Virus record (IMG/VR): IMGVR_UViG_3300045988_018328 | Length of the DNA stretch: 22,956 bases | Reading direction: 5' to 3' (one strand) | Source of the DNA: a virus | Taxonomy: Duplodnaviria > Heunggongvirae > Uroviricota > Caudoviricetes | Shown here: piece by piece, positions 2,175 through 2,763 of the stretch | Position numbering within the stretch: position 1 is the stretch's first letter | Layout of the letters: each line of letters starts with the position of its first letter | Position numbers and translations under genes: made by a program | Notes under the pieces: generated by a model | Databases searched by the model: none | Told to the model about the DNA's origin: nothing | What the model saw: only the letters and a program-made list of their open reading frames with translations

Positions 2175-2189
2175 TTACCCCAAAGGTAA
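2175..2189. promoter_or_regulatory. Operator-like palindrome TTACC-CCAAA-GGTAA, 27 nt upstream of the 2216 start codon
   Basis: Fourth instance of TTACC-N5-GGTAA. Its position overlapping the likely promoter/transcript start suggests a repressor operator. Confidence 0.5.
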
Positions 2190-2215
2190 ACCGAGAGTTT
2201 ACATGAGGGGGAAAC

Positions 2216-2404
2216 ATGGAAATCAACATCATTACATTGCTGAAGGCCATTATTGGCGGAGCGGGCTTAGGCTTTGCCCTACCAGGCGGATTATCTTTCC
2301 TGCTTCCTGCTTTTACTGTTACAGCTGGGATAGCCTATGCATTTGCTGTAGCTGGTGCTGTTGCACTCCCTGCTATCTATGCCGCAAAGAAGTTAGCCAA
2401 CTAA
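2216..2404 (+). CDS. Small hydrophobic Gly/Ala-rich peptide (62 aa) with a double-glycine-leader-like N-terminus
   Basis: Strong RBS GAGGGGG 5 nt upstream. Sequence MEINIITLLKAIIGG|AGLGFALPGGLSF...AAKKLAN. Translationally coupled to the next ORF (TAA at 2402-2404, ATG at 2406). Confidence 0.5.
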   Translation: MEINIITLLKAIIGGAGLGFALPGGLSFLLPAFTVTAGIAYAFAVAGAVALPAIYAAKKLAN

Positions 2405-2405
2405 A

Positions 2406-2738
2406 ATGCCTGATTTATCTTGGCTTGCGCCCAGAGATGCACAGCAATTGACAAGGTTTTATTTCATACTGTGCATTGCTTATCTTGCTGTTCATCTGAT
2501 ATGGGATGCCGTTTGCAAAGATACGCCTCCTTTTTCTTTGGATAAGTTGCAATACAAGATGAATGAGGTTTATTCATCATCTACTTTTGCAACCAGCGCA
2601 TTCTTCATTGTTATTCTGTTCGATATGAAGAATCCACTGAGAACTTCAGATGCTTTCATATTCCCATTAATTATTGCTGCTCTAACTGGCTTTATGATCT
2701 CATTATCAGCAATAGTGCCAAAGAAAGTAAATAACTGA
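2406..2738 (+). CDS. Small integral membrane protein (110 aa, about 3 predicted TM segments)
   Basis: Hydrophobic stretches FYFILCIAYLAVHLIW, FATSAFFIVILF and AFIFPLIIAALTGFMISLSAIV. Coupled to the upstream peptide gene and followed by a terminator. Confidence 0.55.
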   Translation: MPDLSWLAPRDAQQLTRFYFILCIAYLAVHLIWDAVCKDTPPFSLDKLQYKMNEVYSSSTFATSAFFIVILFDMKNPLRTSDAFIFPLIIAALTGFMISLSAIVPKKVNN

Positions 2739-2741
2739 ATA

Positions 2742-2763
2742 AGCCCGCTCTGCGGGCTTTTTT
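2742..2763 (+). terminator. Rho-independent terminator after the peptide/membrane-protein operon
   Basis: GCCCGC-tct-GCGGGC stem-loop followed by TTTTTT. Confidence 0.7.

Follow-up and report, generated by a model that had tools for sequence, protein, structure and literature searches.

A translationally coupled pair of small membrane-protein genes carried as a cassette in an epsilon15-like Escherichia coli prophage: a microcin, or a candidate module for protection of its carrier?

Does a Gly-Gly doublet at residues 14-15 of a small Gly/Ala-rich protein, encoded just upstream of a small membrane-protein gene, mark a class II microcin with its immunity protein, or do the two products work together in the cell that carries them? 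This question is raised by a gene pair found in a 22,956-nucleotide (nt) stretch of viral DNA (IMG/VR record IMGVR_UViG_3300045988_018328; Caudoviricetes), referred to here as the window. The window corresponds to the right-hand part of an E. coli prophage of the epsilon15/phiV10/TL-2011b type, and a first-pass annotation had described its positions 2175-2763 as a microcin/immunity-like operon, with exclusion of superinfecting phages, inhibition of the O-antigen polymerase and a holin-like role as alternatives. The comparison of the pair with its homologues in prophages, chromosomes and a plasmid points to a membrane complex acting in the carrier cell, and it is evidence against a secreted microcin.

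A coupled gene pair and its Gly-Gly motif

The first gene (2216-2404, plus strand; PHROG 13406) encodes a Gly/Ala-rich hydrophobic protein of 62 amino acids (aa) that starts with MEINIITLLKAIIGG, followed by a segment of 47 residues containing 14 Ala and 6 Gly. The second (2406-2738, plus strand; PHROG 36716) encodes a 110-aa membrane protein with three predicted helices. The junction between them is TAA-A-ATG, and such a single-nucleotide gap separates the stop codon from the start codon (ATG, GTG or TTG) in 13 of 16 distinct loci, the genes abutting or overlapping in the others. Pairwise ratios of nonsynonymous to synonymous substitution rates (dN/dS) were between 0.02 and 0.2 for both genes wherever dS was not saturated. 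Both genes are therefore real and under purifying selection, and the translationally coupled two-gene unit that had been proposed is upheld by the gap, its conservation and these ratios.

Homologues of the 62-aa protein, with identities of 61-98%, were found in Klebsiella, Enterobacter, Cronobacter, Obesumbacterium and Serratia, and those of the 110-aa protein additionally in Salmonella diarizonae, Raoultella, Yersinia and Citrobacter. When both proteins were searched by tblastn against all the loci retrieved, the two genes were adjacent in each of the 34 loci of enterobacterial type, and no orphan copy of either gene was detected among more than 40 loci. Neither protein was matched by any model of Pfam, NCBIfam or PADLOC, and in PHROGs both fall in families of unknown function only.

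The second gene is frequently missed or truncated in existing records. It was left uncalled in the assemblies of Klebsiella pneumoniae prophages (L007-L011, around 8191-8526), and in older Yersinia records (P0035-P0037) it was shortened to 88-92 aa through the choice of an internal Met start; PHROG 36716 is likewise short at the N-terminus. The long open reading frame (ORF) is the correct form, because residues P9, L15 and F18-Y19 of its N-terminal part are conserved.

Both products appear to be integral proteins of the cytoplasmic membrane. In the 62-aa protein, Kyte-Doolittle profiles with 19-residue windows gave two segments of transmembrane (TM) strength, at residues 5-23 (1.77) and 33-57 (up to 1.87), and in the 110-aa protein two strong segments were detected, at 18-36 (1.93) and 85-103 (2.24), together with a weaker one in the middle. 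With an alignment of 32 sequences that included distant homologues, AlphaFold2 modelled the 110-aa protein as a three-helix bundle (helices 12-36, 45-72 and 82-101) with almost no extramembrane mass, at a predicted local distance difference test score (pLDDT) of 87.7 and a predicted TM-score (pTM) of 0.75; with 14 close homologues only, the prediction was poor (pLDDT 63). The model found in PDB and BFVD, through Foldseek, only matches with E above 1 and TM-scores below 0.45, and sequence searches of PDB gave nothing meaningful. Hydropathy and predicted helices thus bear out the original description of a Gly/Ala-rich hydrophobic peptide followed by a three-TM protein.

According to the positive-inside rule, the 62-aa protein would be a hairpin of two TM segments with both ends in the cytoplasm (N-in/C-in); its C-terminus reads KKLAN, and the N-terminal extensions of its distant homologues are basic. 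The same rule predicts an N-out/C-in arrangement for the 110-aa protein, as most members of the family have a basic loop 1 and a basic C-terminus. Conserved polar residues are located in its helices or at their ends (H/N30, W33, D34, S64, D73 and N76-P-L-R79).

Class II microcin systems consist of a precursor whose signal is of the double-glycine type (GG or GA), an immunity protein, a peptidase-containing ATP-binding cassette (ABC) transporter (PCAT), a membrane fusion protein (MFP) as well as TolC, and the verified precursors are 75-120 aa long (PMC9746304). Their signals of 15-18 aa follow the motifs M...Rx[IL]x9G[GAS] or M...[KEQI]x[IL]x9G[GAS] (PMC12219008). The pair shares its general layout with the MccV (cvaC-cvi) and MccE492 (mceA-mceB) loci, in which the gene for a Gly/Ala-rich peptide with a Gly-Gly about 15 residues from its start also lies beside a small gene with several TM segments. 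The position of the 110-aa gene is likewise the one expected for an immunity gene, but its family is far broader than any microcin family.

The doublet itself was compared in 35 distinct homologues of the 62-aa protein. Position 14 is G in 26 of them, A in 8 and V in the remaining one, position 15 is G in all 35, and at position 16 A is found 31 times and V 4 times. Between 14 and 38 residues precede the Gly15 site, and the close phage-borne homologues L030, L031 and L037 read ...LAGAG.... The 15-aa leader ending in GG that had been proposed does not hold, as 9 of the 35 homologues have A or V at its penultimate position and the length of the preceding segment is not constant. In the GG register both published motifs fail, since residue 4 is N where I or L is required; the register shifted to G15-A16 fits the second motif, which is intentionally broad, but it fails in the lineages with Val16.

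The composition and size of the protein point in the same direction. The first 15 residues have a grand average of hydropathy (GRAVY) of +1.43 with only two charged residues; double-glycine leaders have GRAVY values of about -0.1 to -0.9. The core of 47 residues, with a GRAVY of +1.30, is also very hydrophobic, and with its 62 aa the putative precursor is shorter than the verified ones.

As for the export machinery, the first-pass annotation had noted that the window holds no C39-peptidase ABC exporter, and this was confirmed: no PCAT or MFP gene is present in it, the rest of the window being made of epsilon15-type structural genes. Nor was such a gene detected within about 5-8 kb of the homologous loci in any of the contexts examined, which included the chromosomal sites of Serratia, Yersinia and Providencia, four contexts from metagenomes or metagenome-assembled genomes (MAGs) and the entire 4.9-kb plasmid from Aeromonas described below; PCAT genes elsewhere in the host genomes lay outside this search. 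No bacteriocin or microcin model of Pfam or NCBIfam was matched, and the 62-aa sequence is absent from the text-form supplementary files of the cinful microcin screen.

The variable first glycine, the failed motifs, the hydrophobic leader, the short precursor and the lack of a nearby exporter speak against the class II microcin that had been put forward. The most fitting reading of the GG places it in a conserved stretch, K-x-x-(I/V)-x-G-(A/V)-G-x-(G/A), that resembles a glycine zipper and falls in the predicted TM1, in such a manner that the N-terminal MEINIITLLKAIIGG would form the first half of this helix and no cleavable leader would exist. The longer N-termini of other homologues suggest that a cytoplasmic extension was lost in the enterobacterial branch. 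Differences from class II microcins thus extend from the TM-like N-terminus and the absence of PCAT and MFP genes to the way of spreading, since this cassette travels on its own by means of phages, islands and a plasmid. The pair is a clear example of a false double-glycine leader, and it carries a warning: when a small Gly-rich protein has a Gly-Gly some 15 residues from its start, the doublet can belong to a glycine-zipper TM helix, and such helices can pass broad double-glycine screens without being microcins. Comparison of homologues and a check for the exporter settle the matter.

A mobile cassette and a wider protein family

Of 5426 complete E. coli genomes, 546 contain DNA of the capsid-portal region of this prophage type and 19 contain the pair, supporting that it is an accessory of these prophages. 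In TL-2011b (NC_019445, 3358-4057) the same slot is occupied by a 59-aa ORF and a type II toxin of the YafO family, between conserved flanks (the gene for a Bro-N antirepressor on one side and a 53-aa ORF on the other), and in phiV10 the slot is nearly empty, with only a 29-aa ORF. The pair was also found in IMG/VR contigs with other backbones: in an HK97-like one it follows the endolysin and Rz genes and precedes HNH and terminase genes (L026, L028), and in a lambdoid one it is placed between a Q-like gene and the holin gene (L030, L038). Nucleotide homology between the window and these other backbones begins at 2169/2170 and ends at 2738-2770, limits that coincide almost exactly with the span of 2175-2763 first assigned to the operon. 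The pair is therefore an accessory cassette of about 600 bp (approximately 2170-2766) that is transferred as a whole among three unrelated phage backbones. Together with the genes travel a -10-like hexamer, two palindromes and the Shine-Dalgarno sequence (SD) and, in several backbones, the same terminator.

A candidate sigma-70 promoter at 2146-2175 (plus strand) has a -35 element TGTACA (2146-2151), a spacer of 18 nt and a -10 element TACTAT (2170-2175), with 8 of 12 consensus positions matched and a predicted transcription start near 2182; a consensus scan of 2110-2215 gave no match of 9/12 or better. The -10-like hexamers aligned with it in other backbones read TAATAT, TAAAAT and TAAGAT, and a -35-like hexamer is found at a spacing of 17 nt in L026, L028, L022 and L030. 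From the conservation of these positions, the cassette probably has its own promoter. At the opposite end an intrinsic terminator (2741-2766, plus strand) consists of the hairpin AAGCCCGC-TCT-GCGGGCTT at 2741-2759 followed by TTTTTT, and the same terminator is found 3' of the pair in the Klebsiella locus L008, in L022 and in the lambdoid L030.

The leader (2175-2202, plus strand) contains two overlapping palindromes, TTACC-N5-GGTAA at 2175-2189 and GTAAAC-N5-GTTTAC at 2186-2202, which are directly followed by the SD GAGGGGG at 2205-2211. The stems hardly vary, if at all, among 11 cassettes from differing backbones, the second palindrome being swapped for a different one in Klebsiella, and neither RNAalifold nor the counting of pairs gave significant covariation in them. 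Because the stems are conserved without covariation, no RNA element is claimed; the palindromes could be an operator or a hairpin in the 5' untranslated region, with a predicted energy of -9 to -16 kcal/mol beside the SD. Hence, from the promoter overlapped by an operator and the terminator that had been proposed, the terminator was confirmed and the palindromes are present, and the promoter, at 8/12, remains below the threshold of the scan.

Two further details of the leader were observed. The palindromes share the sequence GGTAA, so that as RNA they would form mutually exclusive hairpins, and several cassettes have, just upstream, a pyrimidine run (CCCC or CCUC) able to pair with the SD, a pairing without covariation support.

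Between the Bro-N gene and the cassette, a hairpin GGCACA-GGGA-TGTGCC followed by TTTAAATAATT was read from the sequence at 2118-2144 (plus strand). It also precedes the pair in the Klebsiella locus L008, in L022 and in the lambdoid L030, where changes preserve the pairing. A terminator scan made no call for it, and it is probably a weak terminator or insulator.

The GC content is 0.36-0.38 over 2401-2850, compared with 0.52-0.59 in the upstream antirepressor gene and around 0.48-0.53 in the structural genes, in agreement with the AT-richer moron region that had been described. Morons have been defined by a deviating GC content, a promoter and a terminator of their own and horizontal spread (PMC3594210). 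The cassette appears to fit this definition, its candidate promoter entering through the 8/12 match and the conserved position. Searches by DNA and by tblastn of 50,697 phage records of GenBank gave no copy of the pair, so that as far as phages are concerned, and with respect to these records, it is known only from prophages. The exact 62-aa peptide is present in 2,675 blocks of an assembly collection and is common in prophages of K. pneumoniae.

The family of the 110-aa protein extends well beyond these phages. A profile of it, searched against 1.84 billion cluster representatives, matched 82 clusters (at 50% identity) with E<=1e-3 and 53 with E<=1e-10, nearly always over the full length of proteins of 100-150 aa. 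The named members belong to Erwinia and several Providencia species, and soil, marine (Tara) and other metagenomes supplied the unnamed ones; no Pfam family exists for members of the family. In each of the eight loci of distant members inspected, a small Gly-rich hydrophobic ORF lies directly 5' of the gene, with lengths of 90, 70, 99 and 90 aa in L013 to L016, respectively, 59 and 79 aa in two Providencia loci (L041 and L042), 65-72 aa in a marine one (L045) and 68 aa in an Aeromonas plasmid (L050). When profiles of the enterobacterial peptides and of four distant ones were compared, the match was weak taken alone (P=5.8e-4), residues 5-28 of the window protein being aligned with 28-51 of a 90-aa protein. 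This alignment and the invariant synteny, taken together, support that the small upstream proteins are homologous.

The non-phage homes of the pair are varied. In Serratia fonticola it lies between the gene for an ABM-domain protein and guaA, in some strains with a remnant of an integrase alongside, and in Providencia between the alanine racemase gene and hipBA, near guaA. In Yersinia rohdei the neighbours are a CorA-family gene and the gene for a peptide-binding protein, and in a MAG from Proteobacteria they are uvrB and a gloB-like gene. On separate metagenomic contigs the pair adjoins the gene for a TIR-domain protein or an IS1-like transposase gene, and on others it stands beside a type II restriction-modification system with ImmA/XRE genes or beside a phage-type integrase with IS3. 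An unannotated copy was detected at 1859-2409 (minus strand; ORFs of 68 and around 110-123 aa) of pHN21SC2322-1 (NZ_CP102109.1), a plasmid of Aeromonas veronii of 4,928 bp that carries the quinolone resistance gene qnrS2, which was the only match among 72,556 plasmid records. No neighbour gene recurs across the homologous loci; as a self-contained unit, the pair behaves like cargo carried by regions of mobile or defence type. The gene for the ABM-domain protein was considered as a conserved third member and rejected, the Serratia protein and a marine one sharing only 33% identity over 49 residues.

Candidate functions of the pair

The role that we tentatively prefer, with a confidence slightly short of even, is that of a prophage moron whose products form an inner-membrane complex of two subunits, active in cis and protecting its carrier, either through exclusion of or defence against phages or as a toxin-antidote system. 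The two proteins would assemble into one small hetero-oligomeric complex with five helices which, because it has almost no soluble part, must act inside the membrane of the carrier cell. Two routes can be envisaged. In the first, the complex would block the entry of the genome or the formation of the channel by superinfecting phages, as P22 SieA and HK97 gp15 do. In the second, the 62-aa protein would be a glycine-zipper pore-former restrained by its 110-aa partner and released upon infection or loss of the element, with abortive infection or a toxin-antidote mechanism as the outcome.

A role in protecting the carrier is favoured because of the analogy in position and type to SieA and gp15, the toxin-antitoxin (TA) genes that fill the slot in TL-2011b and the defence-type neighbours of several copies. 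P22 SieA, HK97 gp15 and T4 Imm are also small proteins of the cytoplasmic membrane encoded by prophages as independent units of deviating GC content. The pair has a P1-type immI antirepressor operon on one side and the ejection-protein genes on the other, and its transcription opposes that of the late genes. In P22 the corresponding place, between the ejection-protein genes and the immI/tailspike region, belongs to sieA, which is likewise transcribed against these genes. HK97 gp15 is a small inner-membrane exclusion protein encoded by a moron, which also has bacterial homologues outside phages (PMC3594210). By analogy with these proteins, superinfection exclusion, one of the alternatives of the first-pass annotation, is the form favoured. 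The pair differs from SieA, gp15 and Imm in its lack of sequence or profile similarity to them, its obligate two-gene organization and its wide distribution outside phages.

A more ambitious version of this proposal, which we regard as unlikely though worth stating, is that the pair is the founding example of an unrecognized two-component membrane system, made of a glycine-zipper protein with two TM segments and a partner with three, carried by prophages, islands and small plasmids across Proteobacteria and serving protection from phages or its own retention by means of gated permeabilization of the cytoplasmic membrane or blocked translocation of phage genomes. Neither the family nor its obligate organization in two subunits nor its occurrence in three backbones, islands and a plasmid has been described before, both proteins being already in the databases as hypothetical; no mention of the pair or the family was found in the literature by protein accession or topic. 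Small O-antigen-modifying proteins named 'Gnarl' were also considered and are encoded by different genes.

Several observations weigh against a carrier-protecting complex. Similarity of sequence or fold is absent with respect to SieA, PADLOC, Pfam, NCBIfam, PDB and BFVD, and hhalign of the 110-aa family against P22 SieA gave a probability of 0.3%. That the two proteins form one complex is deduced solely from their synteny and translational coupling. The promoter is weak by consensus, and expression in the lysogen is an assumption. A narrower profile alignment detected no distant homologues in viral contigs and one MAG locus in genomes. Finally, the fixed chromosomal sites in Serratia fonticola and Yersinia, the presence in several Providencia species and the members from soil and marine metagenomes fit an ordinary physiological function too.

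If an exclusion, abortive-infection or addiction module were confirmed, it would be a very compact, membrane-only addition of about 600 bp to the known cargo of prophages, and it would give a function to a protein family that lacks a Pfam model and comprises at least 82 clusters at 50% identity. Its relevance could extend to host range in phage therapy, because the pair is common in K. pneumoniae prophages. Morons that encode small membrane proteins are, as a general kind, already well known.

The most serious competitor is a membrane toxin-antidote pair devoted to addiction, a minority possibility that overlaps with the abortive-infection form of the carrier-protecting role. Here the 62-aa protein would damage the membrane and the 110-aa protein would neutralize it within the membrane, thereby stabilizing the prophage, island or plasmid. 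Two tightly coupled genes in a compact cassette, spread patchily over mobile elements that include a plasmid of 4.9 kb, would suit such a system, and so would the retention of the pair beside guaA in seemingly decayed prophage or island sites of Serratia and Providencia and the YafO-family TA module in the TL-2011b slot. An SD next to a stable leader hairpin is a feature of many mRNAs of small toxins, and the predicted hairpin of the leader would provide it, although its structure is without covariation support. Like GhoT/GhoS, Hok, TisB and the YafO-family TA modules, the pair has a short and very hydrophobic protein with two predicted TM segments and a compact mobile two-gene cassette; unlike them, its partner is an integral membrane protein and not an RNA, an RNase or a soluble antitoxin, and no homology links them. 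Against it, the gene of the putative toxin precedes that of its partner, an order that type II TA systems do not usually have, and no orphan gene was found among the more than 40 loci, although genuine toxin-antidote systems commonly have orphan antitoxin or immunity genes.

An ordinary small membrane complex, dedicated to the handling of ions or small molecules or to tolerance of envelope stress and acquired by phages as cargo for host fitness, seems to us doubtful, and slightly more so than addiction. It would account for the breadth of the partner family, for its fixed chromosomal sites and its presence in several Providencia species, and for the polar residues conserved in or at the ends of the helices of the 110-aa protein. 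The distribution, on the other hand, is rare and patchy, as seen in the 19 of 5426 E. coli genomes, the copies are nearly always on mobile elements or beside integrases, insertion sequences, restriction-modification or TA genes, and no metabolic or regulatory neighbour is conserved.

A role in the timing of lysis, as a holin, antiholin or pinholin-like pair, is improbable. The 62-aa protein does have two predicted TM segments, the first rich in Gly and Ala and the second in small residues, and in this it resembles pinholins such as S21 68/71 of phage 21, of about 60-70 aa; in two other backbones the cassette is also beside lysis genes, either between the Q-like and holin genes (L030/L038) or after the endolysin and Rz genes (L026). 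However, the complete lysis cassette of the prophage, which encodes two holins, a GH19 endolysin and a spanin-like DUF2514 protein, lies elsewhere, beyond the tailspike gene and on the strand opposite to the pair; the late operon likewise runs opposite to the pair, and in L030 the cassette with the pair is bracketed by terminators. No holin family of Pfam or PHROGs is matched, the C-terminal tail has only around 5 residues, very short in comparison with S21, and the chromosomal and plasmid copies have no endolysin nearby. The holin-like pair of the first-pass annotation is accordingly disfavoured.

Still harder to sustain is an inhibitor of the O-antigen polymerase similar to Iap. The epsilon15 lineage is historically seroconverting and Iap of phage D3 is a small hydrophobic peptide (PMC4815439; PMC12373910), so that temperate phages of a seroconverting lineage would be represented in both cases, and the pair is near the tailspike region. 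The two proteins of the pair, with five predicted TM segments, differ from the single short peptide of D3, and the window contains no Wzy-beta or other phage polymerase, acetyltransferase, glycosyltransferase or other O-antigen enzyme as a partner. The targets of such inhibitors, the Wzy proteins, are hypervariable, whereas the pair shows high conservation between genera whose O-antigens and capsules are unrelated, and it occurs outside phages as well; no feature of the locus supports this alternative.

The reading with which we began, a class II microcin precursor cut after its GG and leaving the cell through a C39-peptidase ABC transporter whose gene would lie in another part of the genome, with the 110-aa product as its immunity protein, is the least credible of all, given the homologue comparison set out above.

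The surrounding prophage

The window shows 100% identity with the chromosome of E. coli SCZE5 over the stretches tested. In this strain the prophage adjoins yfgG-yfgI, and the tailspike gene and lysis cassette are just to the left of the start of the window. Most of the window, from 22956 down to 3027 on the minus strand, is occupied by structural genes, which encode the small terminase subunit, the portal, a capsid protein of the epsilon15 GP7 type, an internal protein similar to T7 gp14 and two very large ejection proteins. An accessory block in the opposite orientation (around 820-3000, plus strand) contains a 91-aa ORF, the Bro-N antirepressor gene, the pair and the 53-aa ORF.

The antirepressor gene (ant; 1414-2109, plus strand) is the upstream neighbour of the pair. 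In the region 5' of it (1168-1366, plus strand), Rfam models matched isrK at 1181-1256 (77.9 bits) and a C4 antisense RNA at 1281-1366 (77.7 bits), and the c4 a1/b1 target at 1168-1220 scored just under the threshold; promoter-like sites were located at 1102-1174 and a terminator at 1237-1250. The matches to isrK and C4 RNA indicate that the antirepressor is under the control of an antisense-RNA module of the P1/P7 immI type. The product of the 91-aa ORF (823-1098, plus strand) stands alone but is homologous to the C-terminal domain of the Bro-N protein, with which it shares 43% identity over 74 residues (E=5e-16). It matches a PHROG family of anti-repressors as well, and the ORF is conserved beside ant in most of the related prophages.

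Downstream of the pair, the 53-aa ORF (2836-2997, plus strand) has a Sec-type signal peptide, MKKAFAALFVLLSLVASTQAFA, and a mature part of 31 residues rich in Gly, Asp and Arg with two Cys. It matches PHROG 14503, annotated as 'membrane associated protein' in the moron category, and it is a separate small unit, retained in TL-2011b and in Klebsiella prophages even without the pair. The ORF that follows, of 273 aa (3027-3848, minus strand; PHROG 6118, of unknown function), lies at the end of the ejection-protein operon with a GC content of 0.37-0.41. As unrelated ORFs of 123-204 aa occupy this position in related Klebsiella prophages, it looks like a second variable slot for cargo. In one epsilon15-like prophage of Klebsiella (L007, 3032-3613), a Bac_transf gene for a sugar-phosphate transferase is found beside the tailspike/lysis region, and it may be cargo that modifies the capsule or the O-antigen.

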